Positions 12,903 to 37,602 of a DNA stretch of 64,000 nucleotides are shown here, piece by piece (the stretch's first letter is position 1; each line of letters opens with the position of its first letter). This DNA is from Parcubacteria group bacterium (GTDB taxonomy: Bacteria; Patescibacteriota; Patescibacteriia; UBA2169): NCBI GenBank assembly GCA_016181765.1, contig JACOYR010000004.1, forward strand, positions 35,320-99,319, given 5' to 3'. The notes below the pieces were generated by a model. That model was given only the letters and a program-made list of their open reading frames with translations. It did not search any database and was not told the DNA's origin. Position numbers and translations under genes: made by a program.

Positions 12903-13939
12903 ATTTCTGTTTTCTGATAACCGTTTTCTATCTGCGTAATAATTGCCTCCGCAATCTGCCCGATATTACCCGGCTCAACCAAAACGCCATTATCCCCCAC
13001 GGCCTCGGGCACGCCGCCCACGCGTGACCCTATGACGGGTTTATTAAACATCTGCGCTTCTTTGTACACAATGCCATAGCCCTCAAAATCATTGGGATCG
13101 TCTGTGGGGGTGAGTATAAAGCAATCGCAGGCCGAGAGCCAGGCATACTTCTCCTCATCGCTCACTTCGCCGGTGAACATAACGTGTCCGCCCCGGCTGG
13201 ACAGTTCCAGCTCCCGCCTCTCTGTTCCATCGCCGACCACCACGTACACGAGCTCCGGAACAATCTTCCAAACCTCGCGCAATGAGCGCAACACAACATC
13301 AATCCCCTTTCGCTTTACCAGGCGGCCGACCGAAAGCAGGATCGGCCGTGCGCCGAGCGCGTACTTTTGGCGGAGTTCGGCTGCATGCGCCCGGTAGCGG
13401 GCGGGGTCAACCTTCGGAACGCGCGGGTAAGAAACGCGCGCGCGTGAAGGGTCAATGCCGTATTTTAGAAGCAATTGGCTCGTTGCACGGCTGTTCGCAA
13501 TAATCTCGGAAGCTTCGCGCAGAATCCTTGATGCCCACCATCGCTTCCAGGCTGAACGCCGCGCCATCACCAAATCAAGGCCGTGCACGTACACGCGATA
13601 CGGAATTTTGAATCTCCACTTCCACCACAAGGCGGCATAGCCAATAGGCAGGATATGGGAAATCCAGAGATAATCAGGCCGACCACCCCCTAACCCCCTC
13701 CTGGATACAGGAGGGGGAATCGCGCGCCACAACAATGGCAGCCAGTGCGGCCACTTGTCCCAGAAATGCTCCTCGGCCCTCATGACCCGAACCAACTCGC
13801 GTGACGCGCCAACTTCGCCGGCGAGATAGGTCGCAACCCCGCCATATTTCGGGGCCCCCAGCGATTCCTGCGGAATCGTCTGGGGTAAACTCGGCGGGTA
13901 CTCAAGCGTGAGCAGCAAGGGATGTTTTCTGTTCGGCAT
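12899..13939 (-). CDS. GT4-family (GT-B fold) glycosyltransferase with two in-frame palindromic insertions
   Basis: C-terminal GT4 signature EGYGIVYKEAQMFNKPVIGSRVGGVPE. N-terminal EYPP..GGVATY motif is split by an inserted segment. A second insertion PPPVSRRGLGGGRPDY is encoded by a GC-hairpin element. Start taken at MPNRK (13939), ahead of the EYPP block. Confidence 0.8.
   Translation of the reverse strand: MPNRKHPLLLTLEYPPSLPQTIPQESLGAPKYGGVATYLAGEVGASRELVRVMRAEEHFWDKWPHWLPLLWRAIPPPVSRRGLGGGRPDYLWISHILPIGYAALWWKWRFKIPYRVYVHGLDLVMARRSAWKRWWASRILREASEIIANSRATSQLLLKYGIDPSRARVSYPRVPKVDPARYRAHAAELRQKYALGARPILLSVGRLVKRKGIDVVLRSLREVWKIVPELVYVVVGDGTERRELELSSRGGHVMFTGEVSDEEKYAWLSACDCFILTPTDDPNDFEGYGIVYKEAQMFNKPVIGSRVGGVPEAVGDNGVLVEPGNIGQIAEAIITQIENGYQKTEI
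13683..13719. repeat. GC-hairpin repeat element, copy inside the GT4 coding sequence
   Basis: CCACCCCCTAACCCCCTCCT-ggatac-AGGAGGGGGAA. Same family as the copies at 21065, 37428 and 37563. Confidence 0.7.
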
Positions 13940-13943
13940 AGCG

Positions 13944-15386
13944 CTAGCGGCTGACCACGGATTTGAGCCACTGCCAGTCCTCTGACGTGTACGCGCGCAG
14001 GAGGAGGAGCAGCATGCCGTACAAGATGATCGCAACCGGGATGATGATGAGGAACGAGTACTCGCCCCGCAGATAGAGCACTACTTGCCCCATGAGAGCG
14101 GACGCAGCAACAATTTTAACGAGGCTTACTGCGAACCGCGCCGTGAATGTGGGGACGATATGGCGCGAGCGCACCCAGCCCAAGAACACAATCAAGATGC
14201 TGCAGAAGAGCGAGGCGTACACAGCCCCTAAAAATCCGTACAGCGGAATCAGGATCAGGTTTAAGCCCACGAACGCGGTTAACTGGATGCACCGGTTTAC
14301 GGTGTTGGCGCGCTCGTTGCCGGTCGCGTTCAAGAGCGACCCGAACGGGAACTCAACGTACAAGAACACCACGGCCCAGATGAGTATCTTGAGCGCAGGA
14401 ATGGAAGCGCTAAACTCGGGCCAAATCACGGTGATGATGGGATCCGCGAGCAGGTAGATGCCCACCGCAATGGGCAGGCTCACCGAGAAGAGGAGCTGCA
14501 AAGTCCGGGAAAAGATTGACTGCAGGCGCTCCTCTGATTCAACCGCATAGCGCGACATGGCCGGGTACACGGCCGCGGTGATGGCGAGCGCCACAAACGG
14601 GAACGTGAACACGATTTTCGCGGGAATGGCGTACAGGCCGACTGCCTCATCACCCACTAAGTTCTTAATCAAAATTGAATCAATGGTGTTGTACGCCTTA
14701 ATGAACCCGGCAGCCAAAAAAAACGGGGCCGCGCGCTCCATCCACTCCCGCGCAAGGGGCACGTTAATGCGCAGCCGGAAATCCAATGTTGTTTTGCGCT
14801 TGATGAGCACTGCGGAAAATATGACGTGGAACAAGCTGCCTGCCCCGATCACCAGAAGCAATGCGCGCAAGTCGGATGTTTTGGAAACCACAAAAAGCCC
14901 TGCCCCAAAAATGATGATCTGGAATATAACCGTTCCAAGCGCTTCGTAGAACAGGTTCTGCCGGGCGCGGAATACGGCGTAAAAGTAGGCGGTGAACGCG
15001 TCCATCACCATGATGACCGAGGTGATGGCGAGCAGGATCCGCAGTTCGCGCCCGTACCCCAGGGCCAACGTTACTCCGTGGAGCGCCAAAATGGCGGCAA
15101 ACGCCAAAAACATCCGGATGCCGAAGAGCGCGGTAAAGCGCTCTTTCTGCTTTGCGGGGTCCTGGCTGAACGTGCGTATGGCGAGCGGCACAATCCCGAA
15201 GTCAGCCACCAGGGAAAAAAATGCGGCAAACGAGAGCGCGAAAATGTAGGCGCCGAGCAATTCGGGCCCCAGGGCGCGCGCGAGCACGCTGAAGTACCCA
15301 AAGGAAAGGATTTTTTGGAACACCAGAGCCGCGGTGTACACGGCGCCCGAACGGGCGACTTGTTTGGGGTGGTGCATCTGCGGCAT
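13944..15386 (-). CDS. polysaccharide flippase (Wzx / MOP-superfamily)
   Basis: 480 aa with about 12-14 TM helices. Length and topology are typical of oligosaccharide flippases. Positioned at the end of the GT cluster. Confidence 0.75.
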   Translation of the reverse strand: MPQMHHPKQVARSGAVYTAALVFQKILSFGYFSVLARALGPELLGAYIFALSFAAFFSLVADFGIVPLAIRTFSQDPAKQKERFTALFGIRMFLAFAAILALHGVTLALGYGRELRILLAITSVIMVMDAFTAYFYAVFRARQNLFYEALGTVIFQIIIFGAGLFVVSKTSDLRALLLVIGAGSLFHVIFSAVLIKRKTTLDFRLRINVPLAREWMERAAPFFLAAGFIKAYNTIDSILIKNLVGDEAVGLYAIPAKIVFTFPFVALAITAAVYPAMSRYAVESEERLQSIFSRTLQLLFSVSLPIAVGIYLLADPIITVIWPEFSASIPALKILIWAVVFLYVEFPFGSLLNATGNERANTVNRCIQLTAFVGLNLILIPLYGFLGAVYASLFCSILIVFLGWVRSRHIVPTFTARFAVSLVKIVAASALMGQVVLYLRGEYSFLIIIPVAIILYGMLLLLLRAYTSEDWQWLKSVVSR

Positions 15387-15414
15387 ACTGCTATACTAGC
15401 ACCTTTTTGAGAGA

Positions 15415-15849
15415 TTACCGCTTTGACCACTGCGGGCTGCGGCGCGCGCGCTTCTTGCCCGGCTTCTTGCGCTCCTTGACCCTGCGGTCAACCGTCATAA
15501 ATCCCGCGGCGCGCAGCGCGGGCTTTAATTCCGCGTTATGCGAAACGAGCGCGCGCGCAATGCCCAGGCGCACCGCTTCGGCTTGGCCGTGGGCTCCGCC
15601 CCCGAACACGGACGCGTTTACGTCGTAGGCCTTGTCCGTGCCCAGTGCGGAAAGCGAAGCCCGGGCGATGTCTGCAAGGTCAGGCCGCGGAAAGTAATCC
15701 GAAAGCTCGCGCTTGTTCACCACGAATTTTCCGCTGCCGCGCACGTAGAGCTGTACGGAGGCGCTGGCGCTCTTCCGGCGGCCGATGCCGCGGATGTACT
15801 TGCGGCCCTTAAACTGGTTCTTCTCGCTTGTCTTTTCTTCGGTAACCAT
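15415..15849 (-). CDS. rpsI: 30S ribosomal protein S9
   Basis: C-terminus GGGAHGQAEAVRLGIARAL..DRRVKERKK..KRARRSPQWSKR is the classic S9 sequence. Confidence 0.9.
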   Translation of the reverse strand: MVTEEKTSEKNQFKGRKYIRGIGRRKSASASVQLYVRGSGKFVVNKRELSDYFPRPDLADIARASLSALGTDKAYDVNASVFGGGAHGQAEAVRLGIARALVSHNAELKPALRAAGFMTVDRRVKERKKPGKKRARRSPQWSKR

Positions 15850-15853
15850 CTTA

Positions 15854-16213
15854 TTATTCTTTCGCCCCTCTAATGGCTAATCGCTTGATCATGCTCTTGC
15901 GCAGGGAGTTCTTGGGCAGCATGCCGTACACGGCGCGCTTGAGCACTTCTTCGGGACGGCGGTTCAAAAGCTGGCGGAGGCTCTCGCTCCTCAAGCTCCC
16001 CGGGCGCCTGGTAGGGCGAAAGTAGAGCTTTTGGTCCATCTTGTCGCCGGTGATTCTCATCTTGGCGTAATTTTCAACCACCACGGCATCGCCGCAGTCT
16101 TGATACGGCACGTACGAAGCCTTGTTTTTTCCCATGAGCAGCCGGGCCGCCTGGGAGGCGATCCTGCCCAAGGGAATTCCGGATGCGTCTATGGTGTGGG
16201 TGGTGCGCTGCAT
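15854..16213 (-). CDS. rplM: 50S ribosomal protein L13
   Basis: 119 aa from MQRTT. GIPLGRIASQAARLLMGK..YVPYQDCGD aligns with the L13 N-terminus; YGMLPKN is also present. The longer track ORF has a non-coding-looking N-extension. Confidence 0.85.
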   Translation of the reverse strand: MQRTTHTIDASGIPLGRIASQAARLLMGKNKASYVPYQDCGDAVVVENYAKMRITGDKMDQKLYFRPTRRPGSLRSESLRQLLNRRPEEVLKRAVYGMLPKNSLRKSMIKRLAIRGAKE

Positions 16214-16232
16214 ATCGCTCGCTCTATGTCGC

Positions 16233-16583
16233 CTATACGAATGAAATGATAGCCTGCAGGCCGGAGTCGCCCGGCCGAGGGGTGGTTTTGCGGATCCGCA
16301 GGTACCCGCCCGGGCGGCCCTTATACTTGGGGCCGATAACCTCAAACAGCTTTTTGACGGCCCGCTTGTTGGCCAGGGAAATGACGGCCCTGCGGCGGCG
16401 CGCCACCGAATCGTCCGCGGCGCTCGTCACCAGTTTTTCCGCGTACGGGCGCAAAGCCTTTGCCTTTGCTTCCGTGGTTTCAATTGAATCGTACAGCACC
16501 AAGCTCGCCGCAAGCTGGCGCAAGAGCGCGCGCCGCTGCGAAGCGGTACTCCTCAATTTATTGGCTTTTTTCTGGTGCCGCAT
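16233..16583 (-). CDS. rplQ: 50S ribosomal protein L17
   Basis: 116 aa. MRHQKKANKLRSTASQRRALLRQLAASL is the L17 signature N-terminus. Confidence 0.9.
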   Translation of the reverse strand: MRHQKKANKLRSTASQRRALLRQLAASLVLYDSIETTEAKAKALRPYAEKLVTSAADDSVARRRRAVISLANKRAVKKLFEVIGPKYKGRPGGYLRIRKTTPRPGDSGLQAIISFV

Positions 16584-16592
16584 ATCTGATGC

Positions 16593-17393
16593 TTATTCTT
16601 TGGCCTCCTCCTCTTTCGCGCCTGCTTCTCCGGATCCCGGCTCCTCTGGTTCGGCTTCATCCGCGGCTTCCGAATCATCATCACCGGATTCCATAAGCGC
16701 ATCAAATTCGCTCACCAGCTTAAAGTGGCCGGAAAGGATGCCCGCGGCCTGCTTAACCGCGTCCGAAACCGTAATCGTGCCGTTCGTTTCAATCTGCATG
16801 ATGATTTTATCGTAATCGGTCCGGTCCCCCACGCGCACGTTGTCCACCTGGTAGCCCACCTGGTGCACGGGCGTGAAGATAGAATCAATGGCAATGGCGT
16901 TCACCTCCAAGTGCTCCTCTTTGCCGCGCGATTCCACGGTGTCATACCCGCGGCCGGGCCGCACCCACAACGCCATATCCACGGACGCAGCTTTATCGGT
17001 GAGCGTCATGATGACTTGGTCCGGGTTCGCGATCTCAATGTCGCTCGACTTCTCAATGTCGCCGGCGGTCACGGCCTGCTCTCCGGAGACGTTCAGCTTG
17101 AGCAAAACGGACTCGTTTGAAAAACTTTTGAGGTTCACGCGCTTCAAATTCAGCGAGATGTCCACCACGTCTTCTTTTACGTACTCAATGCTCGTAAACT
17201 CATGGGTCGCGCCCTTGATCTTGAATGCGTAAATCGCGGCTCCAGGCAGGGATCCGAGGAGCACGCGCCGCAAGGCGTTGGCAAGGGTCGGGCCGTATCC
17301 CGGATACAGCGGCTCAATGGTGAGTTCGCCCGCAAACTCGCTGCCGTCTCTCGGCGCAACCTTTATTTTTTTGGGGAGTGGAATAGATTCCAT
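16593..17393 (-). CDS. rpoA: DNA-directed RNA polymerase alpha subunit
   Basis: 266 aa. GYGPTLANALRRVLLGSLPGAAI matches the RpoA N-terminal domain. It has a short acidic C-terminal tail instead of a full CTD. Confidence 0.85.
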   Translation of the reverse strand: MESIPLPKKIKVAPRDGSEFAGELTIEPLYPGYGPTLANALRRVLLGSLPGAAIYAFKIKGATHEFTSIEYVKEDVVDISLNLKRVNLKSFSNESVLLKLNVSGEQAVTAGDIEKSSDIEIANPDQVIMTLTDKAASVDMALWVRPGRGYDTVESRGKEEHLEVNAIAIDSIFTPVHQVGYQVDNVRVGDRTDYDKIIMQIETNGTITVSDAVKQAAGILSGHFKLVSEFDALMESGDDDSEAADEAEPEEPGSGEAGAKEEEAKE

Positions 17394-17411
17394 AGCTGTA
17401 GTTTAAAAAAA

Positions 17412-18038: not shown

Positions 18039-18043
18039 ACTGG

Positions 18044-18493: not shown

Positions 18494-18500
18494 AGGGGGT

Positions 18501-18896
18501 TTAGGTCTTCTGGGCTGTCGGCTTCTTGCCGCTGGTTGCAGTCTTGCGCACGTTTCCGCGCACGGTCCGGGAGTTGGTCTTGGTGCGCTGGCCGCGCACG
18601 GGCAAGTGCCGGCTGTGGCGCAAACCGCGCCAGGTTCCGATCTCTTTCAAACGCTTGATGTTCCCATGCACCAGCCGCACCAAATCTCCCTCTAGCACAA
18701 TCTTGTTGCCGTCAATCACGGTGCGGATGCGGTTCACCTCTTCCTCGGTCAAATCCTTGCACCGCTTGGATTCGCCAATGTTGGCGCTCGCAAGCACTTT
18801 CCCGCTCGTTCTGCGGCCAATGCCCTTGAGGTAGGAGAGGGCGACCACAATCCGTTTGTTGTCCGGGAGCGTTACTCCCGCAATGCGTACTGCCAT
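18501..18896 (-). CDS. rpsM: 30S ribosomal protein S13
   Basis: [31 protein letters not shown] is the S13 signature. Confidence 0.9.
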
Positions 18897-18924
18897 TCTT
18901 CGTCTAAAACTTACATAATTATTC

Positions 18925-20406: not shown

Positions 20407-21060
20407 CTATTTCTTGTTACGCATATCCATAAGATACATGTCCTTTTGGGTGCGGTATACCAGGACGAATGAATATGCAAAGAGGAGCGCGGCAAGGTAG
20501 GGCAAGGCTTTTTCAAACCACGGAACGCCAAGGTATATGATGCCCGCATTCAAAAGGATGATGGCAAGCCGGTACTCTGTGGGCCCGAACCCCAGGGACC
20601 CGATTTTGAACGCGTTGTACGCTGAAAACGAGAGAAAGGTGCTTACCGGGATGATGGTGCACGCGATGAAGAAGATGAAAAGCGCAAGCAGCGCGGATGC
20701 ATCAACCAAGAGCGCATACCCGATGAATACGCTAGCCGCGAACACAAAGTCCAATAGGTGGTCCGTGTAAAATCCCCAGCGCGCAAAACCGGAATTCCGG
20801 TAGCGACCAACAGCGCCATCCAGAGAGTCAGTGAGCCAGTGCAGTACCATGATGCCGGACGCGGCCCAGAGCCACCGGATGTCTGCCGCGGCCCAGTAAG
20901 AAAACCAGATAATGCCAGCGCTCCATGCAAGCGAAGCAAGGGTCAAATTCACGCCGTTCAAAAACCGCGGCGCTCGCGGCGCCATTGCGCCTACCAGCTT
21001 GTGCTCCCACGCGCTCAAGATGGAGGTGTTGATTTTCTTGTTTCCGTCAAACAGTTCCAT
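20407..21060 (-). CDS. CDP-alcohol phosphatidyltransferase family protein
   Basis: Motif DSLDGAVGR (the D-x2-D-G-x2-A-R class) in a 6-TM protein. Start taken at MELFDG. Upstream codons of the track ORF run into the GC-hairpin element. Confidence 0.7.
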   Translation of the reverse strand: MELFDGNKKINTSILSAWEHKLVGAMAPRAPRFLNGVNLTLASLAWSAGIIWFSYWAAADIRWLWAASGIMVLHWLTDSLDGAVGRYRNSGFARWGFYTDHLLDFVFAASVFIGYALLVDASALLALFIFFIACTIIPVSTFLSFSAYNAFKIGSLGFGPTEYRLAIILLNAGIIYLGVPWFEKALPYLAALLFAYSFVLVYRTQKDMYLMDMRNKK

Positions 21061-21064
21061 AGTA

Positions 21065-21102
21065 CCACCCCCTTGCCCCCTCCTCATTAGAGGAGGGGGG
21101 AA
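21065..21102. repeat. GC-hairpin repeat element at the murC / CDP-alcohol-PT junction
   Basis: CCACCCCCTTGCCCCCTCCTC-atta-GAGGAGGGGGGAA. The first 22 nt are identical to the copy at 37563. Confidence 0.7.
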
Positions 21103-27865: not shown

Positions 27866-28015
27866 AAACTGCTATGATAGCGCATCATAGCGGTTGATGC
27901 AAGCAACCTAATACAATTACTTTGGGGAATGGCTGGTAATTCCGAAACAACGTTATTCCTTCCACTTAATGGAACACCCCATGGAGGGGGGTTTTGATTT
28001 GCACGAGCCTGAATT

Positions 28016-28882
28016 TCAGATATTTTTATTTCTGATCTGTCGCGCGTTCTTGCCGGTAATTGCGCTGTTTCCGGTTTTTTTCTCTATGGACTTTCGGGCC
28101 GCGCCAGCCACGCTCCCGCCTTCGCGCGCCACGGTTTTATTTTCATCCAAATTTTTCGGTTCTCTTTTTTCCGATATTTCAGTGGTCGCGGTTTCGGCAA
28201 GCATATTCAAAACCAATTCCAAATTAGTCATATTGTCCCGCAGATTTTCTTTTTTCAGCCCTTTGAGATTTTTATACTCCTTGGTGGTCAATCCGGCCCA
28301 TGCCCGGCTTATCTCATCGGTTAGAATTGCAAACTCCAGACCTTGTTTCATGCCCCGTTTTTCCCATTCATCAGTAAGCGCTTTGCGGATTTCAATGCTT
28401 TTGAGGCGCTGATTGACCCACTCCGGGCTGTATCCTTTTTGCAGGTATGTTTTTAAGGCACGATTAATGGCCAATTCGGGATCTGCTGTTTCTTCCAAGC
28501 GCTCATAGCCCACTTGCGCCAGCCAAAGCTTAAATGGTTCGGCATTTGGCGAAGGTATTGACTGGATGAGCCGGAGCATAACCTCTGTATCGGTGGCATC
28601 TGTGGCATAATATTTGCCATCTTTAGCCATAAATTTCAGTTCGTGACATTTTGTCACGGACTGACTACCTTCTTCTTTTAGTCTTTGTTTTAACTTTCTC
28701 CAATATGCCCCGGCATCAATACTGTTAGTTAACACTCTCACCACATCAATCACAGAAAAATACCAGAGTTCTTTTTCATCATCCCAGTGGCGGCGAATTT
28801 GATTGCCCTCAAAAAGCGCGATGGATTTATTTTTTGATTGTTTCTTTTCGTTGTTCATATATAATCCGTTGCCATTTTCCAT
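28016..28882 (-). CDS. Bro-N / KilA-N-like DNA-binding domain protein (DinD/antirepressor-like)
   Basis: 288 aa. The N-terminal block IALFEGNQIRRHWDDEKELWYFSVIDVVRVL fits the Bro-N pattern (F.G..IR...D.E.WF...DV...L). The rest is alpha-helical. Confidence 0.55.
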   Translation of the reverse strand: MENGNGLYMNNEKKQSKNKSIALFEGNQIRRHWDDEKELWYFSVIDVVRVLTNSIDAGAYWRKLKQRLKEEGSQSVTKCHELKFMAKDGKYYATDATDTEVMLRLIQSIPSPNAEPFKLWLAQVGYERLEETADPELAINRALKTYLQKGYSPEWVNQRLKSIEIRKALTDEWEKRGMKQGLEFAILTDEISRAWAGLTTKEYKNLKGLKKENLRDNMTNLELVLNMLAETATTEISEKREPKNLDENKTVAREGGSVAGAARKSIEKKTGNSAITGKNARQIRNKNI

Positions 28883-28890
28883 TCTATCTC

Positions 28891-29196
28891 TTATTTGACA
28901 AATTGACTACCAAAAGCCCTGTGCAATATAGATTGCTCCAAAGCCGCCAAATCATCACGGGTTGATTTTTGGTATTCCTTTAGCCGCCGAACCTTCTCGG
29001 CAAGCTGGTGAAATGGGATGGTGAAATGGGGACATGACCCATTTTTGATGACCCATATTTCCCGTTTCTGCGTGACCAGCCGGAAATGACTCAATCGGTT
29101 GTAGTAGCTCTTATAGGAATACGCGATGAACTCGCTTGCATAACTCACCCAACCAAGCCCTTCGCAAAATTTATTTCTTACCCTTGCCGAAAACAA
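28891..29196 (-). pseudogene. remnant of a type I restriction-modification S subunit (HsdS C-terminal fragment)
   Basis: 101 aa ORF whose end LAEKVRRLKEYQKSTRDDLAALEQSILHRAFGSQFVK resembles the conserved C-terminal helix of HsdS (..L..LKQSILQKAF.G..). No complete target-recognition domains and no hsdM or hsdR nearby. Confidence 0.35.
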
Positions 29197-29692
29197 AATC
29201 TAGAGTAGGATCTAATTCTTTTAATAATTTTTTATGTTCTTGGAGAATTTCTTCTTGAATTTTTATTGATTCAGCCATACACCAATCACGTATAAGTTCA
29301 TAATTTTTGTTTTCCTTGCAATCTTTAGCTATCCCCTTTCCTTCAACCTCTTCCTTCATCATGTTTATTGCGAGTATAGAGATACATGCTTTTTTATCAT
29401 CTATGTATTGAGATAGCCCTGTATAACCCACTATTAGGTCGCTAAAGTCATCTCCATGTTTTGAGAATATAATCGCTATTTTAATCGCTTCTTTAATTTC
29501 GTCTTTTGAATAAGGCAATATAGAAATTGGCGCTCCAAAAACCATATAAGCTGATTTTTCCATTATCTTCCCATAATCATTGATTATTTTTTCAGCTTCT
29601 TTGACATCCATAGAGGGGAGAAAAAAGGTTTCAGGAATTGTTTTTATTGAGGGAACGATGACCTTGGTGGCGGTGATGGTGGGTGGATTCAT
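29171..29692 (-). CDS. hypothetical protein (AT-rich island)
   Basis: About 173 aa from MNPPTIT. No recognisable domain. Codon usage matches the AT-rich island. Confidence 0.45.
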   Translation of the reverse strand: MNPPTITATKVIVPSIKTIPETFFLPSMDVKEAEKIINDYGKIMEKSAYMVFGAPISILPYSKDEIKEAIKIAIIFSKHGDDFSDLIVGYTGLSQYIDDKKACISILAINMMKEEVEGKGIAKDCKENKNYELIRDWCMAESIKIQEEILQEHKKLLKELDPTLDFVFGKGKK

Positions 29693-29705
29693 GTTGATAT
29701 AAGGC

Positions 29706-31043
29706 TCATCTAAACAAACTTTTGAACCAACTTTGAATTCTCGAAAAGAAAATAAAATTAAGTTTTGACTCCGTCGTTTTCTCATTGCTGGTTTCAAAAT
29801 CAGTAATAATATCTTCTACGACAAATTGATTAGTTGTATTTATTTCTTCTGCAGTCTGTTCTGGCTCAATCTGGACGCACGAATTACCAACTTCTCTATA
29901 CCCGTCATCACACAGCCACACATCTGTTAGGCTTTCTACAGCATGCGCATGTTCTGGAATTTGTATGCAATATTTTTTATTTAACGAAAGAGCATATCCT
30001 TCATTACAATGGATACTTGCTTCTTTTTCTTCCCTAACCACTTCGCTAGAAAGCACCCTAGCTCCTGTTTCATTCTCTGTAGTTGTAGCCTCTATACCGG
30101 GTTGAGTATTTGTAGATTTATCAATAGATGGCGTAGCTACCACAGGAGTAGTAGGAGTATCTTGTTCTACAGTGGCAGGAGAAGCAAAAATTGGTTCGCG
30201 TTGATTTTGTTTATCACTATTGAATAGATTAACCCTTGAATTAAGATTATTCAACAATTGCTCGTAAGAATTGTCTACTTCCTCTATGCACCTCTCATTT
30301 TCAAAAATATACCCATAGTCACACTCGCATGTTTTCGAAGAAGAATCGTAACTTGAATAATAACCATAATTATCATGGCAGTATGAATCACCATCTACAC
30401 AGGTTTGCCCCCCAAATAAATTCGTATCCAGAACATACCCTCTGCCACACTTACAACTATCGGTTAAAATATCGTGTTCAGCATTCCATCCCAGCAACTC
30501 TTGACAATAATCATCTCGCGACACACACTTCCCGCCATTCAAAATATAGCCATAACTACATTTACACGAACTAGTCAGGGAGTTATAACTTGAATTATAG
30601 CCATACAAATTCCTACAATAGGTATTGCCAGAAACACATTCCTTATCACCAAAAATATTCGTATCCACTACATAGCTATAATTACACTCACATCCACCAG
30701 ACAACGAATCATATGAAGAGTTTAAAGGACACGAAGGCCTAGAAGGAATTGAGGGGGTTAGGAAATCGTAATTCAATGAAGGATATGTGTAATCAGGCGC
30801 TGGGGTGGTATAGCCAGTACCACCATCGCCCCAATGGCTATGTATAGGATCAGATGGTTGTGGTAATCCTTTATTGTTATGACAGTGGTACTCGCCATAA
30901 GACAACCCCCAAGAACTGCAGTTCGTTCTACAAGTATGGCAACCCGAGCCATCAGTGCCCCCGGGATGAGCGAAAGTAGAATCCGATAATCCAAATATGA
31001 CAAAGGTTGCCCCCAGTAGTATGAAAAAAAATCTAAGGCGCAT
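29706..31043 (-). CDS. secreted protein with N-terminal His/Cys-rich module and four tandem ~40 aa Cys-rich repeats
   Basis: 445 aa. Signal peptide MRLRFFFILLGATFVIFGLSDSTFA. N-terminal module HPGGTDGSGCHTCRTNCSSWGLSYGEYHCH. Four repeats of the form C(E/K)CxYGYxL..xxCVxxDxYC. A Thr/Pro-rich linker and an acidic C-terminal domain follow. Confidence 0.6.
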   Translation of the reverse strand: MRLRFFFILLGATFVIFGLSDSTFAHPGGTDGSGCHTCRTNCSSWGLSYGEYHCHNNKGLPQPSDPIHSHWGDGGTGYTTPAPDYTYPSLNYDFLTPSIPSRPSCPLNSSYDSLSGGCECNYSYVVDTNIFGDKECVSGNTYCRNLYGYNSSYNSLTSSCKCSYGYILNGGKCVSRDDYCQELLGWNAEHDILTDSCKCGRGYVLDTNLFGGQTCVDGDSYCHDNYGYYSSYDSSSKTCECDYGYIFENERCIEEVDNSYEQLLNNLNSRVNLFNSDKQNQREPIFASPATVEQDTPTTPVVATPSIDKSTNTQPGIEATTTENETGARVLSSEVVREEKEASIHCNEGYALSLNKKYCIQIPEHAHAVESLTDVWLCDDGYREVGNSCVQIEPEQTAEEINTTNQFVVEDIITDFETSNEKTTESKLNFIFFSRIQSWFKSLFR

Positions 31044-31070
31044 AATCTAATAGTGAGTCGGAAAACCTAT

Positions 31071-32537
31071 CTAAAGTTCCCATTTAAAGTAACGATTCAC
31101 CGCATATTCAACGCCTACGCGGAAACGATTAGTGCGCTTATCATTCTCAATTTCATGAATTTCCCGATCTAGCGCATCAATTTCTGATTTAACGCGATTT
31201 TTTTCTTTTTCTTTCATCTCATGATAACGCCTATCTATATCGCCAATACTTTCTTTAAGGACTTTCTCGTTCTGTGTAATTAGAGCATCCTTCCTTGTAT
31301 GAATATTTGTTATGTCTGTCTTTGTAGTTCTCACTTGGTTAAAAATTTTTTTTAAATGAGAATGTAGCCGCTTTACCGTGGGAGATGAGACAAAAAGGCC
31401 TTCAAATGGCTTTATTGCTGTACGCGATATCAACTCAATGATGAATAACACTAAACACACCAACCATTTAATTCCATATGTAATACTGCCGAGGAATGAT
31501 TTGATCGTCCTCCAAACAAGGCTCCACTCGGTATGGCTCAAAAATAATGCGGCAAGAAAACCAACCCCAAAAAATAGGGCTATATATACAAGGTCACTAA
31601 AATTTTCGTTTATATTTTCACGGCGATAAAAGTACAAAGAAACTGGAATACTTATAAGTGTAACAATACCTATCAATAGCGCTATTGCCTCAAACAACTT
31701 TTTCAATAAACTAGGACACGACTTGTGGTTGTGAAAAAATTTTACACCCTCAAAAGCGAAAACCATAATAACCATAAAAGCAATTGTAAATTGGATCAGA
31801 CTTATCCCGTCACCACGGTTCCACACGGGGATTGCGTCTATATTGAGTCGTGAGCTAATGTAATAATCTACAATGAGCAACACAATAAAAATCACAATTG
31901 GCCACCAATGCGCAACAGCACTAAATCCATCAAGCGATGTAGTTAATTTATCGTGCGTGTCCAATAGCCATTTTTTTGATGCTACTGTGATTGGATTTTT
32001 TCTTGCCTTTTGCTTCTCTTCTCTGTACTCCTTTTCCGCATCAAGAAGCGCAATAGTTAATCTTTCTTTTTCTGATTCAAATTTTGTCAATTTCTCAACC
32101 AAGCTCTGCAGTTCTATATCAAGTTTTTGAATTTCATTCTCCAAAGATTGCTTAAAATTGTTTAAATGTTTTTCTGCGTACTCGTGTTCATTTTTTAAAT
32201 TTTGCTCAAGACGCGCGACAAACTCTTTGCGTTCTTCTTCTAATTTAGTTTTTTTTAATCTCAATATTTCAATACGCTCCTGCATATTCGTCATAAATTT
32301 CGGCTTCGGAACACTATCCCAAATTCTGGACTTAGCTATGCCATGCTGTTTGTCTAGTGGCTCATTTTTAAACGAAGTATCAATTTCATTAAGAATACGA
32401 CGATTCAAATTCTTAGTAGCGATTCTGCCAACATTAACGCCGCGACCGAAACGGCTTGTATAGTACACAATAGTGGCCAGTAATGCAGCCCCTCCAATAC
32501 CCGGCACTGCGATTGCGATGATTTGCCAGTAATTCAT
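31071..32537 (-). CDS. membrane protein with flanking coiled-coil regions (unknown function)
   Basis: 488 aa. N-terminal TM, long heptad-like KE-rich helix, four central TM helices and a C-terminal coiled coil. No family recognised. Confidence 0.5.
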   Translation of the reverse strand: MNYWQIIAIAVPGIGGAALLATIVYYTSRFGRGVNVGRIATKNLNRRILNEIDTSFKNEPLDKQHGIAKSRIWDSVPKPKFMTNMQERIEILRLKKTKLEEERKEFVARLEQNLKNEHEYAEKHLNNFKQSLENEIQKLDIELQSLVEKLTKFESEKERLTIALLDAEKEYREEKQKARKNPITVASKKWLLDTHDKLTTSLDGFSAVAHWWPIVIFIVLLIVDYYISSRLNIDAIPVWNRGDGISLIQFTIAFMVIMVFAFEGVKFFHNHKSCPSLLKKLFEAIALLIGIVTLISIPVSLYFYRRENINENFSDLVYIALFFGVGFLAALFLSHTEWSLVWRTIKSFLGSITYGIKWLVCLVLFIIELISRTAIKPFEGLFVSSPTVKRLHSHLKKIFNQVRTTKTDITNIHTRKDALITQNEKVLKESIGDIDRRYHEMKEKEKNRVKSEIDALDREIHEIENDKRTNRFRVGVEYAVNRYFKWEL

Positions 32538-32541
32538 ATAG

Positions 32542-33918
32542 TTATCTACAAAGATGATTTAAATAAATACTGCGTTTAATTTGTGCGAAGCTCTCATCTT
32601 CGTCCTCATTCTTAAAAAGTTTAATACAAGCGTTAGAAGAGATAACAGCATTAAAAGTCGCGCCAATATCACTAATATACCGTTGAGGGCAAACGAGCGA
32701 AATATTGTAGAGAGGGTATTTCACCCTGGCTTCTTCTTGTGCTATTTCTGAATCAATCTCCTGGTGCTCTGTAATGTATTTTCTCTGTTGAGCGCTATTA
32801 TTATTATTCTGCTGTTGAAAATATGCCCCACAATCTTGCAAAAATTTCGCGTATGAATCTGATTCTATTTGGTATGTATTTTTCCAACCATATGTTTTAG
32901 GAAGACCAGTCATCGTGCCAGCAGTAACAATAACAACTTTATCATCCGACTCTTTCATAGAACTTAAATTCTCAACAGAAGGATCAAGGTAAAGCTTTTG
33001 TTGTGTGAACCAATCTTTAAAAGTATTTTGTAACACATCAGTCTCGTGCCAAGTACAACTAAATTTATCATTATTTTTAATGTCGCAAGTATGCTCTTTA
33101 ACAGTAGTTATATAAAGCACTTCAGTTTTTCGAGAATCGTCTCTTTCTTTTGCCATTCTAAAAATTGGGTATGATCGTTTTAACTCCAAAGTTAGTGTGC
33201 TGCCGTTTTCGGCTTTTGTTTCAAACTGCAAAGTGTCGCTGGAAGGAAGTTCTGATATGTATCCATTCACAATTCGAGTTATTTCTTTAATGTCATTTGA
33301 AGTAGTGGGCGCAAGAACCAACTTTGTTGTTGTGTTTGAATTTGTAAGTGTGGTAGTAAATGGGGGTTGTAATTCGGTATCTTCCCCTTCAATTTTTTGA
33401 CGCAGTTCAACCCAAACCTGTGGAGTAATCACTTCAGAATATCCATCCGCAATAAACTTAACTTTGTTTGCGATAGGATCAATCTCAAATGACTTTTTGA
33501 AATCCAGATTTTTCTGTTTATTGAGTATTGCGCTCCATACGCCAGGAGATTCTTGATCTCTTGCTTCATAAGGAAGAATAATAAGACAATAATCATCCAC
33601 ATCTGCACCCCTGAAAGTAAAAGCCGTATTGCCTTCTTTTTGATTACAAATAGAATCGAGAGGAGGAGGGTCCACAATCTTAAACATCCCAAACACAATC
33701 CCAGCCACAATCAAAATAATTACAGTAGCAACAATAATCGTTTCCTGTGTATCCTTGCGCTCTTTTAATCTATCACTCCCTGGCGGGACCTGTGGGTGTG
33801 TATCCATCATAGGAAGTAACGTTATCTCCTCTAGCCGTTGTTTCTCAATTTCTTTTCCACAGTTAGGACAAAAATTGTCTTTCTCTTTAAGTTGTTCTCC
33901 GCACTTACTGCAATACAT
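32542..33918 (-). CDS. zinc-ribbon / single-pass membrane protein with large extracytoplasmic domain (unknown function)
   Basis: 458 aa. N-terminus MYCSKCGEQLKEKDNFCPNCG (CxxC..CxxC zinc ribbon), one TM helix (IIVATVIILIVAGIVFGMF), then a roughly 370 aa Ser/Thr/Asn-rich ectodomain. Confidence 0.5.
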   Translation of the reverse strand: MYCSKCGEQLKEKDNFCPNCGKEIEKQRLEEITLLPMMDTHPQVPPGSDRLKERKDTQETIIVATVIILIVAGIVFGMFKIVDPPPLDSICNQKEGNTAFTFRGADVDDYCLIILPYEARDQESPGVWSAILNKQKNLDFKKSFEIDPIANKVKFIADGYSEVITPQVWVELRQKIEGEDTELQPPFTTTLTNSNTTTKLVLAPTTSNDIKEITRIVNGYISELPSSDTLQFETKAENGSTLTLELKRSYPIFRMAKERDDSRKTEVLYITTVKEHTCDIKNNDKFSCTWHETDVLQNTFKDWFTQQKLYLDPSVENLSSMKESDDKVVIVTAGTMTGLPKTYGWKNTYQIESDSYAKFLQDCGAYFQQQNNNNSAQQRKYITEHQEIDSEIAQEEARVKYPLYNISLVCPQRYISDIGATFNAVISSNACIKLFKNEDEDESFAQIKRSIYLNHLCR

Positions 33919-33944
33919 ATCCGAACCATAGCTAAATAAGCTTA

Positions 33945-34175
33945 TTATGGCAAGCTCTCACATGCCTCACCATCTTTATTCCCATCTAGCCGATGAATAT
34001 CATTACTTACCCCGCCACAGGACTCAAACACACGCTGTGCTTCTGCGCGTGTCTTAAAATCTGAACAGTTATAGGCATTGCTGTCACAAATTGTGTTGTT
34101 GGATGAGCCAGCGCTGCAACCTGTCAACGCCAAACTGGCAAGGAGCAGTAGCAAGATGTAGTGTAGTTGTCGCAT
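33945..34175 (-). CDS. Excalibur (extracellular Ca-binding) domain lipoprotein
   Basis: 76 aa from MRQLHY. Lipobox LTGC. DxDxDGxxCE-type motif LDGNKDGEACE. Near-identical to the C-terminal 55 aa of the adjacent thermonuclease. Confidence 0.6.
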   Translation of the reverse strand: MRQLHYILLLLLASLALTGCSAGSSNNTICDSNAYNCSDFKTRAEAQRVFESCGGVSNDIHRLDGNKDGEACESLP

Positions 34176-34197
34176 ATAATTTAGTTTAATGCCAAAT

Positions 34198-35091
34198 TTA
34201 AGGTAAACTCTCGCACGCCTCGCCATCGCCATCCGCATCAAGACGATGGATGTCGTTTGCCACGCCGCCACACTGCTCAAACGCGGCCTGGGCTTCTGCG
34301 TGCGTTGTAAAGTTACTGCAGTTGTAAACATTGTTTGAACAATCGTACTGGCCTTGCGCTTGTGGCTCTGTATCTGGTTCTATAGTCGAGGGGGGTGGAG
34401 CGCTTGGTGCTGGCTCCCCTTGCTCTACTTCATCTGCGTCCGCGCACACGCCATCCGCCCACAGACCGCGCTTTGCTACGCGCGCCTCGTCCTCGGCTTG
34501 TTTAAATTGTTCTTGATACTTATATGGCAGGTTGTAGGTGTATTCGTGTCCATACCCCTCGCGTATCATCAAGTCGCTAAAGTTGGCGCCATCTTCAAAA
34601 AAAACGTAACGAAGCAAACGGCTGTACTTGTCGCGCTCGCCCTGGGTTGGATCTGCTTCCAGTCGGACACGATTACCGCTTAATACCTCCTTGGCTTTGT
34701 TGGATGCCTCTATGCCAAAACACTGTACTGGCTTTCGGGGATCAACTGTTTCTGGCGTGTCTATGCCAATGAGGCGTATAGTTTCGCTTGAGCCGTCCAT
34801 GTCAACAGCAATCGTATCCCCGTCAACTACTCTCACAACATCATATAATACTTCATCTGTGCTGGTTGCATTTTTATCCGTGTCATTATGTCCTTCAACT
34901 GGTTCAATAGCATCGTCATCTACGGCTGATTCATTTGAAACACTTGCGCCTTCAGCTTGTTGATTTTGGTCTGAAATATTCTGTGTCGGCGCGCTCGCGG
35001 ATTGACTTTTTGCATTACGAACATTATCTGAAGAAGATGTACATCCGCTTAATATAATAGATAAAATACTTAAAACAACGATCTTCTTCAT
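34198..35091 (-). CDS. thermonuclease (SNase-like) lipoprotein with C-terminal Excalibur domain
   Basis: 297 aa. Lipobox ILSGC. SNase core VDGDTIAV..IRLIGIDTPE..GE..ASNKAKEVL..RLLRYVF..REGYG. The C-terminus is an Excalibur motif LDADGDGEACE. Confidence 0.75.
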   Translation of the reverse strand: MKKIVVLSILSIILSGCTSSSDNVRNAKSQSASAPTQNISDQNQQAEGASVSNESAVDDDAIEPVEGHNDTDKNATSTDEVLYDVVRVVDGDTIAVDMDGSSETIRLIGIDTPETVDPRKPVQCFGIEASNKAKEVLSGNRVRLEADPTQGERDKYSRLLRYVFFEDGANFSDLMIREGYGHEYTYNLPYKYQEQFKQAEDEARVAKRGLWADGVCADADEVEQGEPAPSAPPPSTIEPDTEPQAQGQYDCSNNVYNCSNFTTHAEAQAAFEQCGGVANDIHRLDADGDGEACESLP

Positions 35092-35231
35092 AAAATTTTA
35101 TGGTTGTTATAAGGATATATGGCCTAACGTTTCGGCATATGATGCTGTATGAGCAATACGGGTGGAGTGAAGCGGAACCGCATACACGCCGTTGTACGAT
35201 GTAATGAAAAAAGTTTTAATTTCTAGTGCAA

Positions 35232-36464
35232 TTATTTTCTTGCTATTTTTTCCATAATTTTATGGTCATTTCCGAATCTGCACATCGCATCGCAGTTTCC
35301 ACTAAGATCTGACGATAAGATGTATCGTATGTCCAATCCCTTTTCTTTGACCGATGGTCTGCTGAGTTGGATTTTAATATCTTTTTCTCTTTCATCCGGT
35401 ATCGCAATGTAAAGTTTTGAACTATGTAATGGCAATGACAGTGATAAATCAGCAAGCCGCAAAATACCTGAATAAATTGATGTGCTTTTTTCTACTTCAA
35501 AAGCGCACACAATTATATTCGTGCCTTTTACAAACCAAACAACATCAATCAAACAAATAGTCTTGAATATATCTTGGTTTACATCTAACTCGGGAAACTT
35601 ATTTAAGCTGATGAAAGAAAATTTATTATCCCGATAGGTCTTTGAACGATCATTTGCGGCGGCAATTACGTCATATCCGAGTGCGTGGCCGATCTTAAGT
35701 AATTGATATTGCATCTCTGTATGCAATTCATCTTCGTGTTTTTCATTCTCAACTTTTGAATGGCGTTTATGAAGTTGTGCCAATATTTTTTCCCGATCTT
35801 TTTCTGAAAGTGACGCTCCTTTATCCACTAAAATATTGTTTGCCCCTATTTCGAATAAAAATCCCGCAAATGCACCTAAATCATTTGAAAAATGCCTTAG
35901 AAATTCATTATTTTTTTGAATTATTATCTCTCTCATTTTTAAGTATTCTTTCCAAGAACCCAATTTGATTTTTTCACGAAATAAAGTATTAAAACCTTTT
36001 ACGATTGCCGTATTGCATGGCGGAATAATTGTTGGATGCAGAAAATATAAAATACTACCAACTGCAGGTCCAAGCCCTTTAATATTTTTTTCATTCAGTT
36101 TTATGATTTCCGATATGATTGTTTCTTTGTTTGAGGTATTTAAACAATTTTCTAAAAATTGACCGAAATATTTTTTATTTTCCTGATTTTCATAGATATC
36201 CGGTATTCTTAATTTCGGTTTCCAATAAAATGGATGAGCCGCCCCTTCAAATACTTCTTTTTGTTCAGTAATGCAATTAAGAACAAACTCCAGTGAACTG
36301 CCCTTAAAGTCGTTTGGGAAATGCCCATTTTTTATGTCGTCAATTACCTGAATTACACCTCTTCTTACAGAACGAAAAGCTTTCAGTCTCTCTTCGCTAT
36401 TTACAAACCAAGTATGGTAAACCAAGTCATGGTTGTTTTTATATTGTTTGATAAGCTCGTCCAT
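35232..36464 (-). CDS. putative PD-(D/E)xK-fold nuclease with HhH-like motif (restriction-endonuclease-like)
   Basis: 410 aa and AT-rich. IKGLGPAVGSILYFLHP resembles a helix-hairpin-helix. Near the C-terminus IDVVWF..IIVCAFEVEKS fits the D..(D/E)xK nuclease core. No adjacent methyltransferase. Confidence 0.4.
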   Translation of the reverse strand: MDELIKQYKNNHDLVYHTWFVNSEERLKAFRSVRRGVIQVIDDIKNGHFPNDFKGSSLEFVLNCITEQKEVFEGAAHPFYWKPKLRIPDIYENQENKKYFGQFLENCLNTSNKETIISEIIKLNEKNIKGLGPAVGSILYFLHPTIIPPCNTAIVKGFNTLFREKIKLGSWKEYLKMREIIIQKNNEFLRHFSNDLGAFAGFLFEIGANNILVDKGASLSEKDREKILAQLHKRHSKVENEKHEDELHTEMQYQLLKIGHALGYDVIAAANDRSKTYRDNKFSFISLNKFPELDVNQDIFKTICLIDVVWFVKGTNIIVCAFEVEKSTSIYSGILRLADLSLSLPLHSSKLYIAIPDEREKDIKIQLSRPSVKEKGLDIRYILSSDLSGNCDAMCRFGNDHKIMEKIARK

Positions 36465-36575
36465 AATCTAAAGATACCTTTTATGATTATTTCTAAAACC
36501 ATTAGTGGAAAGAAATACTAAAACTTTTCATTATTTCGCCTAACTACTTGCTACCCCAAACACGCACAATGTGTA

Positions 36576-37265
36576 CTATTTCTTTTGCTTAAAAATAAAT
36601 ATCACAAACAAACCTATAACCACAAAATCAATCGCACCCCACAACGTCTTGTTATACAAATAAATAGGCATGATTGGATTAAACAGAATAGCAACAGCTA
36701 CAAAGCACCAAAACCAAAATCCTTTTTTCCGCAATGCCCGGTATAAGTAGTAGGCGTAGTAAATAGACGAGGCAGTCACAATAATCTTGGTAATAGTATA
36801 AAAACCATACGGCATCGGAAATACTGACAGAAACAGCACTATTGAGCTTACTATGGCGGGCCATCGGTAGAATTCAAGTTTGGAATGAACATGCGCCATA
36901 TGATTTTGCTCTGATTTTATCTTATTTGAGTGTAATAAATCCGTATTACGGCCATTTTCTTCTGTCTTTTCTACACTAGAAACATCACCGCCTAACAAAT
37001 ATATGCCATTTTTATAAACCACGACATCATGGCCAATAATCGTATTTATCTTATAACGATATTGCCTAATATGGTCTTCGGAGTAATCCTTTTCCCTATC
37101 CAAAAAATCGCCAATATCCGTTACTGTACCTTGCTTATTTGCGCATAAAAAAACAAGCACGCGGTAAGCGTTGCCGGTTAAGCGTAACTCCTTATTATGT
37201 TCATCAAAAACTTGCCTGCTATTAGTATCTAAACTAAAAAATTTATGTTTATACAACATATTCAT
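36576..37265 (-). CDS. ToxR/CadC-like membrane-anchored transcriptional regulator (OmpR-type winged HTH + C-terminal TM domain)
   Basis: 229 aa. The N-terminal ~90 aa (..ELRLTGNAYRVLVFLCANKQGTVTD..L..) fit the OmpR/PhoB C-terminal wHTH pattern. The C-terminal half has 3-4 TM helices. Confidence 0.5.
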   Translation of the reverse strand: MNMLYKHKFFSLDTNSRQVFDEHNKELRLTGNAYRVLVFLCANKQGTVTDIGDFLDREKDYSEDHIRQYRYKINTIIGHDVVVYKNGIYLLGGDVSSVEKTEENGRNTDLLHSNKIKSEQNHMAHVHSKLEFYRWPAIVSSIVLFLSVFPMPYGFYTITKIIVTASSIYYAYYLYRALRKKGFWFWCFVAVAILFNPIMPIYLYNKTLWGAIDFVVIGLFVIFIFKQKK

Positions 37266-37427
37266 CTCGTATTGTTGCTGTCAATCTATCATTTTCCAGC
37301 CTAAAAATCAACCCAAAACTCCCGCCTCCTCGGTGGGCAGACGGCTCATCCCAAAACAGCCGATCGGCTCATTTACACCATTTGAGCCGATCGCGGCCCG
37401 GATATGAGCCGATTTACCATCCCCCAA

Positions 37428-37464
37428 CCACCCCCTCGCCCCCTCCTTGGTAAAGGAGGGGGAA
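37428..37464. repeat. GC-hairpin repeat element (island / pilus-operon boundary, copy 1)
   Basis: CCACCCCCTCGCCCCCTCCTT-ggta-AAGGAGGGGGAA. Confidence 0.7.
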
Positions 37465-37508
37465 TTAATCGCGGCCGCTTGAAGCGTCCGCGCCACTCCC
37501 TATCATCC

Positions 37509-37543
37509 CCTTGTATCAAATCATCACTTTCTGGTATAATACA
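37509..37543 (+). promoter_or_regulatory. putative sigma70 promoter (extended -10) for the pilus operon
   Basis: TTGTAT (-35), 18 nt spacer, TGgTATAAT, about 75 nt upstream of the pilB ATG. The leader contains a GC-hairpin repeat element. Confidence 0.45.
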
Positions 37544-37562
37544 CACAGGCAAAAATATCACC

Positions 37563-37602
37563 ACCCCCTTGCCCCCTCCTTAAAATAAAAGGAGGGGGAA
37601 CG
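37563..37602. repeat. GC-hairpin repeat element (pilB leader, copy 2)
   Basis: CCACCCCCTTGCCCCCTCCTT-aaaataa-AAGGAGGGGGAA. Confidence 0.7.

Follow-up and report, generated by a model that had tools for sequence, protein, structure and literature searches.

The 64-kb window analyzed here (64,000 nt of contig JACOYR010000004.1, assembly GCA_016181765.1) comes from a metagenome-assembled genome (MAG) of the Parcubacteria group, part of the candidate phyla radiation (CPR). It carries a set of short GC-rich hairpins, some lying between genes and others read in frame through protein-coding sequence. What are these hairpins, and how did they come to lie within genes? A preliminary description of the window had taken them for an undescribed, lineage-specific family of insertions analogous to Rickettsia palindromic elements (RPEs). 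We propose, with a probability of roughly 70%, that they are solo copies of a mobile triplex-motif repeat acting at the DNA level, and that a DUF559 nuclease is the likely source of its mobility. The proposal draws on a repeat family, on insertion polymorphism between relatives, on covariation that follows a triplex code, and on an association with DUF559 genes.

A three-part repeat within and beyond the window

Six elements are present in the window, four canonical copies and two C7/G7 variants, versus ~0.25 expected by chance. On the plus strand the canonical copies read CCACCCCCT-NN-CCCCCTCCT-loop-AGGAGGGGGAA and start at 13683, 21065, 37428, and 37561; these are the four copies reported previously, with the start of the last one moved from 37563. 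They were located with purpose-built scans and shuffled controls (MAFFT alignment moved the loop-length variation to the 5′ end). The hairpin core CCCCCTCCT-N3-12-AGGAGGGGG has four exact matches (13694, 21076, 37439, and 37572), all on the plus strand, versus 0.00 expected from shuffles, and CCACCCCCT has four exact matches, each directly 5′ of a canonical hairpin, versus 0.45. A degenerate scan for a hairpin with a C-rich arm followed by a G-box finds six sites versus 0.25 in shuffles. A generic triplex-motif finder that allows at most one mismatch returns exactly the same six sites in the 64 kb and no others.

The unit is 33–40 nt long. Along its G-rich strand, a C-rich arm and a purine arm (R-AGGAGGGGG) flank a short loop, and a 2–3-nt turn leads from the purine arm to a G/T strand GGGGGTGG-T-K (TTCCCCCTCCTTTACCAAGGAGGGGGCGAGGGGGTGGTT as an oligonucleotide of the G-rich strand). 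Canonical stems are 10 bp long with loops of 4 nt, except in the fourth copy, which has a loop of 7 nt. DNA folding yields −10.7 to −12.5 kcal/mol for the canonical hairpins (z = −2.4 to −3.7) and leaves the box unpaired. Between the copies at 21065 and 37561, 20 element bases and the one base before them are identical, so that the long identical leader described earlier exists and measures 21 rather than 22 nt. The C7/G7 variants at 6294 and 10369 are likewise real and have the three-part layout of the canonical copies.

The family extends far beyond this lineage. A census pattern with 23 specified bases, CCCCTCCT-N4-11-AGGAGGGG-N2-6-GGGGTGG, for which we estimate fewer than one chance match, occurs in at least 120 stretches of a species-representative genome collection spanning many phyla and in 89 stretches of viral contigs, some of which hold seven to eight copies. 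Hosts among the matches listed include Hymenobacter, Pontibacter, and Rufibacter, Terriglobia and other Acidobacteriota, Thiomargarita, Permianibacter, Sphingomonas, Balneolaceae, Dehalococcoidia, Geobacteraceae, one cyanobacterium, many CPR groups, and one Bathyarchaeia MAG. Inverted pairs 40–100 nt apart are common among these matches, and flanking positions that the pattern leaves unspecified are conserved (T at −1 in 116 of 155; T at +1 in 140 of 155). One Thiomargarita MAG (L064) carries five motifs in tandem with a 41-nt period (7128–7322), and further copies and inverted pairs lie nearby. Rfam holds no corresponding family, whether the window is searched at the gathering threshold or seven loci in E-value mode; its matches to inverted pairs are spurious microRNA hairpins. 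Literature searches with the element's sequence strings, and for repetitive extragenic palindromic (REP) elements in CPR bacteria, found nothing relevant.

A third strand that mirrors the purine arm

In a purine-motif (reverse-Hoogsteen) triplex, a duplex takes up a G/T strand that runs antiparallel to its purine strand, giving G·G:C and T·A:T (or A·A:T) triples. The element's G-rich strand follows the formula YT-CCCCTCCT-Y-loop-R-AGGAGGGG-(2–3 nt)-GGGGTGG-T-K, in which the 3′ G/T box repeats the purine arm in reversed order, uncomplemented and with T standing in for A. In all six window copies this mirror pairing places G opposite G and T or A opposite A with at most one mismatch. The arm's first A faces T in 238 of 263 unique copies, A in 21, and another base in four.

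The third strand also covaries with the stem. Where stem pair 9 is T-A, the next box base is T in 114 of 153 copies; where the pair is C-G, it is G in 50 of 56. Fisher's test gives p = 4e-30 for the 263 unique copies (1e-23 in the genome set and 5e-9 in the viral set), values that overstate independence because related copies within lineages are counted. The mirror rule is kept in variant arms as well: arm GGGAGGGGG goes with box GGGGG-T-GGG (L061), and arm GGAGGAG with box GTGGTGG (L049). It is also kept in several further families at DUF559 loci and in the C7/G7 copies of the window; in the 6294 variant the box is seven Gs followed by T, the mirror of an arm of A followed by seven Gs. In a non-circular control, hairpins with asymmetric purine arms were detected first and the mirror and direct-order rules scored afterwards; perfect mirror matches outnumber perfect direct-order matches by 52:1, 7:0, 158:8, and 112:6 in four locus sets. 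That so many different arms keep to the rule speaks for a structural constraint on the motif. A G-quadruplex reading was rejected, as a quadruplex needs no C-rich arm and predicts no A-to-T mirror correspondence.

Because the purine arm is mirrored by a G/T third strand, the box, we place the element in the purine-motif intrastrand triplex class, and we infer from sequence that the window's family can form such a triplex.

A new sequence family of a known class

The class itself is known, and the preliminary description's view of the hairpins as an undescribed kind of element gives way on this point. Its best-characterized member is TM_ECO, CCCTCNCCC-N3-6-GGGNGAGGG-N3-GGGNGAGGG, earlier called boxC or PIT (Holder et al. 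2015, PMC4666352; earlier work on the boxC/PIT class includes Hoyne et al. 2000, as cited there). TM_ECO occurs in 23 copies in Escherichia coli MG1655, including five inverted pairs, and in 3,610 copies in 262 proteobacterial genomes; its second loop is TTA or CCG (PMC4666352). As single-stranded DNA it forms a stable triplex by circular dichroism and nuclear magnetic resonance, and the authors state that purine-motif triplexes are unable to form in RNA. They also report elevated local variability between strains, describe the MG1655 copies as ‘always intergenic’, and found no associated mobility genes (PMC4666352).

TM_ECO and the window's family are alike in size and share a C-rich arm, a 3–6-nt loop, a purine arm, a 3-nt second loop that is often TTA, and a mirrored G-rich third strand. 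Dispersed, multi-copy occurrence with frequent inverted pairs is a trait of the class that is found here too, as is variation in presence or absence at individual sites, and E. coli copy #9 of TM_ECO adjoins a DUF559 gene. The two differ in sequence, however (CCCCTCCTY / RAGGAGGGG / GGGGTGGTK in the window's family versus CCCTCNCCC / GGGNGAGGG / GGGNGAGGG), and the window copies (CCCCCTCCT / AGGAGGGGG / GGGGGTGG) do not fit the TM_ECO consensus. Neither AGGAGGGG, CCCCTCCT, nor GGGGTGG occurs in the accessible part of the supplementary tables of PMC4666352. The host ranges differ as well: Proteobacteria only for TM_ECO, but CPR bacteria, Bacteroidota, Acidobacteriota, cyanobacteria, Thiomargarita, and viral contigs for the window's family. 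The latter often lies in coding sequence, whereas TM_ECO is intergenic in MG1655, and it is associated with DUF559, whereas Holder et al. found no associated gene. Since the architecture of the class is shared and the TM_ECO consensus is not, we take the window elements to be a different, new sequence family or variant of the known triplex-motif class, with a much broader host range and an unusual tendency to lie within genes.

Filled and empty sites in relatives

Two syntenic relatives, recovered through the protein of the window's family 4 glycosyltransferase (GT4) gene, allow individual sites to be compared: L001 (GT4 identity 76%), with two copies in 12 kb, and L004 (67%), with six copies in 11.5 kb. 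Site A in a family 2 glycosyltransferase (GT2) gene is empty in the window, which has the canonical SIKNQTFQN-FEIIIVDDGS (SIKNQTFQNFEIIIVDDGS), and carries 33 additional nt in L001 (SPSFTKEGVGGG) and in L004 (SPSFVKEGVGGG). GT2 site B is empty in the window and in L001, and is filled in L004 by exactly 36 nt (PPPLMRRGSGGG, of the form CCCCC…GGTGGT). The GT4/GT2 junction and a site internal to murC (SPSFSRRGRGGGH in L004) are likewise filled in L004 and empty in the other two. At the murC 3′ end, the window is filled, L001 is empty (…ARNLVK*), and L004 is filled by a variant. The GT4 loop is filled in all three, and most other GT4 homologues are ~9 residues shorter at this site. At this shared site the stems of the window and L001 copies differ by two compensatory pairs, which could reflect either structural selection or replacement by another copy. 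Most of the copies carried by L001 and L004 are located in coding sequence.

Orthologues that are cleanly filled or cleanly empty at a site show that the elements are inserted DNA rather than ordinary GC-rich coding sequence. Alignment of orthologous GT4, GT2, and murC genes, which the preliminary description had proposed, shows clean in-frame insertions of 33 and 36 nt. The elements are thus inserted and tolerated in frame, much like RPEs. The analogy stands for insertion and tolerance, and fails for length. RPEs are palindromic repeats of ~100–150 bp, restricted to Rickettsia, that lie in frame in protein genes and are tolerated in surface loops, and their orthologues without the insert also show clean insertion; the window elements measure 33–40 nt. 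We know of no report of a triplex third strand or of a DUF559 link for RPEs. R. conorii repeats are discussed beside GTAG/CGTC-tagged repeats in a published survey of REP elements.

Coding context of the window copies

The coding contexts given in the preliminary description hold throughout. Half of the six window copies lie in frame inside glycosyltransferase genes, and one more forms the end of murC. The 6294 variant (6294–6330, G-rich strand plus; CCCCCCCCTG-TAAT-CAGGGGGGG-ATTAAA-GGGGGGGT) is antisense to a GT2 gene on the minus strand (5771–6655) and encodes DPPFNPPLITGGGS. The 10369 variant (10371–10406, minus; TCCCCCCCT-GCCCG-AGGGGGGGA-CAA-AGGGGGGGTG) is sense in another minus-strand GT2 gene (10173–11090) and encodes SPPARGGDKGGVG; the GT2 paralogue at 4879–5715 has an uninterrupted AIKQVGLMDERFF at this site. 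The canonical copy at 13682–13717 (minus; CCCCCTCCTG-TATC-CAGGAGGGGG-TTA-GGGGGTGGT) lies in the GT4 gene (Pfam Glycos_transf_1 and Glyco_transf_4; listed as 12899–14035, minus strand, with a likely start at MPNRK). Translation through this copy gives IPPPVSRRGLGGGRP, to which the element itself contributes PPPVSRRGLGGGRP.

The copy at 21063–21099 (minus) joins murC to a downstream CDP-alcohol phosphatidyltransferase gene. It supplies the last five codons of murC, which ends in …HSPLL, and the TAA stop (21087–21089) inside the hairpin loop. The in-frame ATG of the downstream gene (21058–21060) follows 4 nt after the end of the G/T box GGGGGTGG. The two remaining copies are found between a DUF6804 gene (36576–37265, minus strand) and pilB, where the AT-rich island meets the pilus operon: one at 37426–37462 (minus), at the island's edge, and one with the 7-nt loop at 37559–37598 (minus), 19 nt 5′ of the pilB ATG (37618). 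An extended −10-like TGGTATAAT (37532–37540) lies upstream of the pilB-leader copy, and the pilB mRNA would carry the C-rich strand of that copy. The AT-rich island itself spans ~28000–37600 (GC 0.37–0.42 versus 0.52–0.65 elsewhere), has the DUF6804 gene as its last gene, and ends at the two motif copies before pilB. The G-rich strand falls on one strand, probably the leading one, in five of the six window copies; we rejected a strand bias because the copies are too few and strand is confounded with gene direction. Outside the CPR the fraction of copies in coding sequence is unreliable, as crude open reading frame (ORF) calls on motif-selected loci are noisy. Frequent in-frame insertion of triplex motifs into coding sequence appears to be new.

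Association with DUF559 nuclease genes

Which gene, if any, travels with the motif? ORFs were clustered over 120 motif-selected loci among the matches listed. The largest clusters are ABC ATPases, ribosomal proteins, and similar proteins, and no transposase family (REP-associated tyrosine transposase (RAYT)/Y1 or other) recurs in the clusters of these loci. A small gene for DUF559 (PF04480, a Vsr-like PD-(D/E)XK nuclease) is found in five loci; it abuts a motif in all five and is bracketed by inverted copies in three.

We therefore turn to a set without motif bias, 80 metagenome loci selected solely for DUF559 homology, on which the generic triplex finder was then run. Here 49 loci have motifs within 300 nt of the gene, 105 in all, and eight motifs lie elsewhere; many contigs end at the gene, and the resulting densities are 1.47 versus 0.056 motifs per kb, a ~26-fold enrichment. 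In the typical layout a sense copy lies 30–50 nt 5′ of DUF559 and an inverted copy 0–40 nt 3′, with both third strands facing the gene; the second loop of the upstream copy is often a mini-hairpin. On one short contig (L293) with a motif-flanked DUF559 gene, a small GIY-YIG nuclease gene is also present (66–407).

Two further loci, L300 and L301, have exactly the window's own motif family. Each carries seven copies, in both orientations, and a motif-flanked DUF559 gene inserted in a conserved operon, an ABC-2 permease / auxiliary component operon in L300 and between dnaK and dnaJ in L301. A cyanobacterial MAG (L068, OY969811.1) carries an MmeI-family restriction-modification gene (278–3700) whose methyltransferase domain is split by an in-frame motif-DUF559-motif unit; a further solo motif lies in frame downstream, and the ORF is open throughout.

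Independent support comes from E. coli K-12, where TM_ECO #9 lies ~170 nt downstream of ycjD, a DUF559 gene. We estimate the chance of such proximity at ~0.3%, given 18 motif loci in 4.6 Mb. A degenerate motif lies within the 3′ end of ycjD, and a partial duplicate of that 3′ end lies between the gene and TM_ECO #9. The K-12 arrangement fabI-ycjD-sapF (L219, 5030–5840) is found in 3,346 of 5,426 complete E. coli genomes, and in many others the similarity stops ~40 nt before TM_ECO #9. One alternative arrangement (L303) carries an unrelated TetR/RND efflux island and no motif, and is for that reason uninformative as a clean ycjD empty site.

In structural terms, the DUF559 profile hits PDB 3hrl (E = 4e-34), and a weak hit (E = 1e-3) is to 3r3p, a mobile-intron protein. 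A published survey of PD-(D/E)XK proteins places DUF559 alongside Vsr and the homing endonuclease of a group I intron, and a survey of programmed inversions found DUF559 genes 14-fold enriched among inversion targets, which fits the inverted motif flanks. Literature searches found no published link of DUF559 or ycjD to boxC, PIT, or triplex motifs, and the link between DUF559 and triplex motifs across phyla appears to be unreported. From this association we infer a possible catalytic role for DUF559 in moving the motif.

Origin of the elements and competing explanations

How would a solo copy arise and act? When the G-rich strand becomes single-stranded, the arms may form the 10-bp hairpin, and the G/T strand would then fold back antiparallel on the purine arm to form G·G:C and T·A:T (or A·A:T) triples. 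As the enzyme making the breaks or nicks that would drive copying, DUF559 is the strongest candidate. The motif-bracketed DUF559 gene would be the likely source of mobility, in the way that a RAYT gene is bracketed by REPs, and solo copies and gene-less inverted pairs would be its non-autonomous derivatives. Copies were inserted at new sites as this Parcubacteria lineage diverged; with almost no intergenic space available, those that survive would lie at gene junctions or, with lengths divisible by three, in tolerant surface loops. Junction copies may have been co-opted to donate a stop codon and a Shine-Dalgarno-like box, and the in-frame units of 33 or 36 nt would add a peptide of the form Pro-rich … Arg/Lys … Gly-rich to the surface loops of enzymes. 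A more far-reaching version, which we hold only tentatively and think somewhat more apt to fail than to hold, is that boxC, PIT, and TM repeats are together the ends and non-autonomous derivatives of a widespread, unrecognized mobile element whose sole gene is DUF559, whose termini act as folded hairpin-triplex DNA, and which remodels proteins in frame in compact CPR genomes.

Several points weigh against a mobile triplex-motif repeat moved by DUF559, among them the relatedness of copies already noted for the covariation tests. No DUF559 gene is found in the 64-kb window, L001, or L004, and the single insertion whose bounds are precise shows no target-site duplication. In vivo dimethyl sulfate footprinting of TM_ECO detected no triplex (PMC4666352), and earlier work, as cited in the same paper, found neither promoter nor terminator activity for the E. 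coli elements. DUF559 similarity does not track motif type (permutation p ~0.14), and the two ends of one DUF559 unit often differ in motif type. A PD-(D/E)XK nuclease alone cannot explain cut-and-paste insertion, and homing of DUF559 genes into motif pairs already in place would account for the association just as well.

This last possibility, the main rival, makes DUF559 a parasite of the motif: homing-type nucleases would insert between inverted pairs, and the motifs themselves would spread through host replication or repair at non-B DNA or through another transposase. The layout around the gene agrees with it, since DUF559 nearly always sits between an upstream sense and a downstream inverted copy, the same ‘inward’ arrangement as in many gene-less pairs. 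So do the independence of motif type from DUF559 similarity, the group I intron homing endonuclease within the DUF559 fold family, and the presence of DUF559 units inside operons and even in frame in the MmeI-family gene. Yet parasitism leaves the mobility of solo copies unexplained, and the 120 motif-selected loci show no other recurrent neighbor gene and no RAYT or other transposase; we regard it as unlikely, if serious. The elements could instead be regulatory hairpins in RNA that sequester Shine-Dalgarno sequences, couple translation, or stabilize mRNA for pilB and the gene downstream of murC. The purine arm AAGGAGGGGG and the box GGGGGTGG are indeed Shine-Dalgarno-like, the C-rich arm resembles the 16S 3′ end, and at two junctions, that of murC and the GT4/GT2 junction of L004, 2–4 nt separate the box from the start codon that follows. 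Nevertheless, copies are found in either orientation with respect to genes, both inside coding sequence and between genes; a search for a terminator-like tail found none; no Rfam family matches; the third-strand covariation obeys reverse-Hoogsteen rather than Watson-Crick rules; and, on the published account, purine-motif triplexes do not form in RNA and the E. coli elements lack promoter and terminator activity. We consider regulatory RNA hairpins improbable as an account of the family. Sequestration of AGGAGG by the pilB-leader hairpin, as suggested earlier, is unlikely to be what the element is for: that sequence lies 19 nt from the ATG, both orientations occur, and the third-strand covariation has no explanation at the RNA level.

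A REP/REPIN-type element moved by a RAYT, an IS200/IS605-like tyrosine transposase, would share several traits with the window's family: a GC-rich hairpin of ~35 nt, dispersed and multi-copy occurrence with inverted pairs, and occasional intragenic copies. The resemblance to a REPtron (REPs with their RAYT) goes further, to a small gene bracketed by inverted copies and to many gene-less solo and paired copies. However, the bracketed gene here encodes a PD-(D/E)XK (DUF559) nuclease, not a Y1 HUH transposase; the recurrent neighbor is DUF559, and no Y1 transposase family recurs in the 120 loci. The element flanks read Y-T before and T-K after, with no terminal GTAG or CGTC tag, and the additional, conserved and covarying mirror third strand is not a feature of REPs. 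We judge a RAYT-moved REP very improbable. As to miniature inverted-repeat transposable elements (MITEs), gene-less inverted pairs and DUF559 units carrying motif flanks were both observed, and the precisely bounded insertion had no visible target duplication. The DUF559 unit resembles free-standing or intron-borne homing endonucleases of the Vsr/EDxHD fold (PDB 3r3p, ‘mobile intron protein’): DUF559 belongs to the same fold family, and its gene behaves as a selfish insertion inside operons and genes. It differs from them in having no intron or intein; the unit is bounded by inverted triplex-motif repeats and is readable in frame.

Implications

In E. coli the boxC/PIT/TM repeats were recognized about thirty years ago and have since been assigned no origin, mobility mechanism, or function, and DUF559 is a large nuclease family without an assigned role. 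The 26-fold enrichment across phyla, together with ycjD in E. coli, turns the two problems into a single testable hypothesis, a nuclease paired with structured DNA ends, for which E. coli offers an accessible test system. In CPR bacteria, a selfish repeat adds loops of 11–12 residues to core enzymes (murC and cell-envelope glycosyltransferases) and rewires gene junctions, which bears on annotation and on how proteins evolve in minimal genomes. If DUF559 proved irrelevant, a solid but modest result would remain, namely a new and very widespread sequence family of a known class that is tolerated in coding sequence. The main interest lies in the in-frame colonization of core genes and in the DUF559 link, more than in the CPR copies themselves.

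Other in-frame inserts in the window

Further inserts occur in the window. The GT2 gene at 10173–11090 holds a second in-frame insert of ~100 nt (10782–10916, minus strand; ‘PTEASRRRAEWRNPLQPANGTYKGSLGGEYPLGM’), bounded by the inverted repeat GTCATTCCGAC ... CTCGGGATGAC and absent from the GT2 paralogue at 4879–5715; it looks like a different, MITE-like in-frame element. A Wzy_C/O-antigen-ligase-like gene (7167–8876) carries an in-frame insert at 7845–7958 (minus strand; ‘NETEPNVSNKPYGDNKIASAYGLAMT’) with GAAGCAATC ... GATTGCTTC and ...CTCGCAATGAC. A GT4 homologue (P0011) has a similar insert, ‘SNKPYGDVKIATVESTLPRNDN’, which suggests another widespread repeat tolerated in coding sequence. Finally, the N-terminus of the window's GT4 includes a 15-residue insert (13832–13903, minus strand; ‘SLPQTIPQESLGAPKY’). 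Its distribution is patchy (of 18 close homologues, P0001, P0006, and P0007 alone have it), and it contains only the short inverted repeat CGATTCC/GGAATCG.

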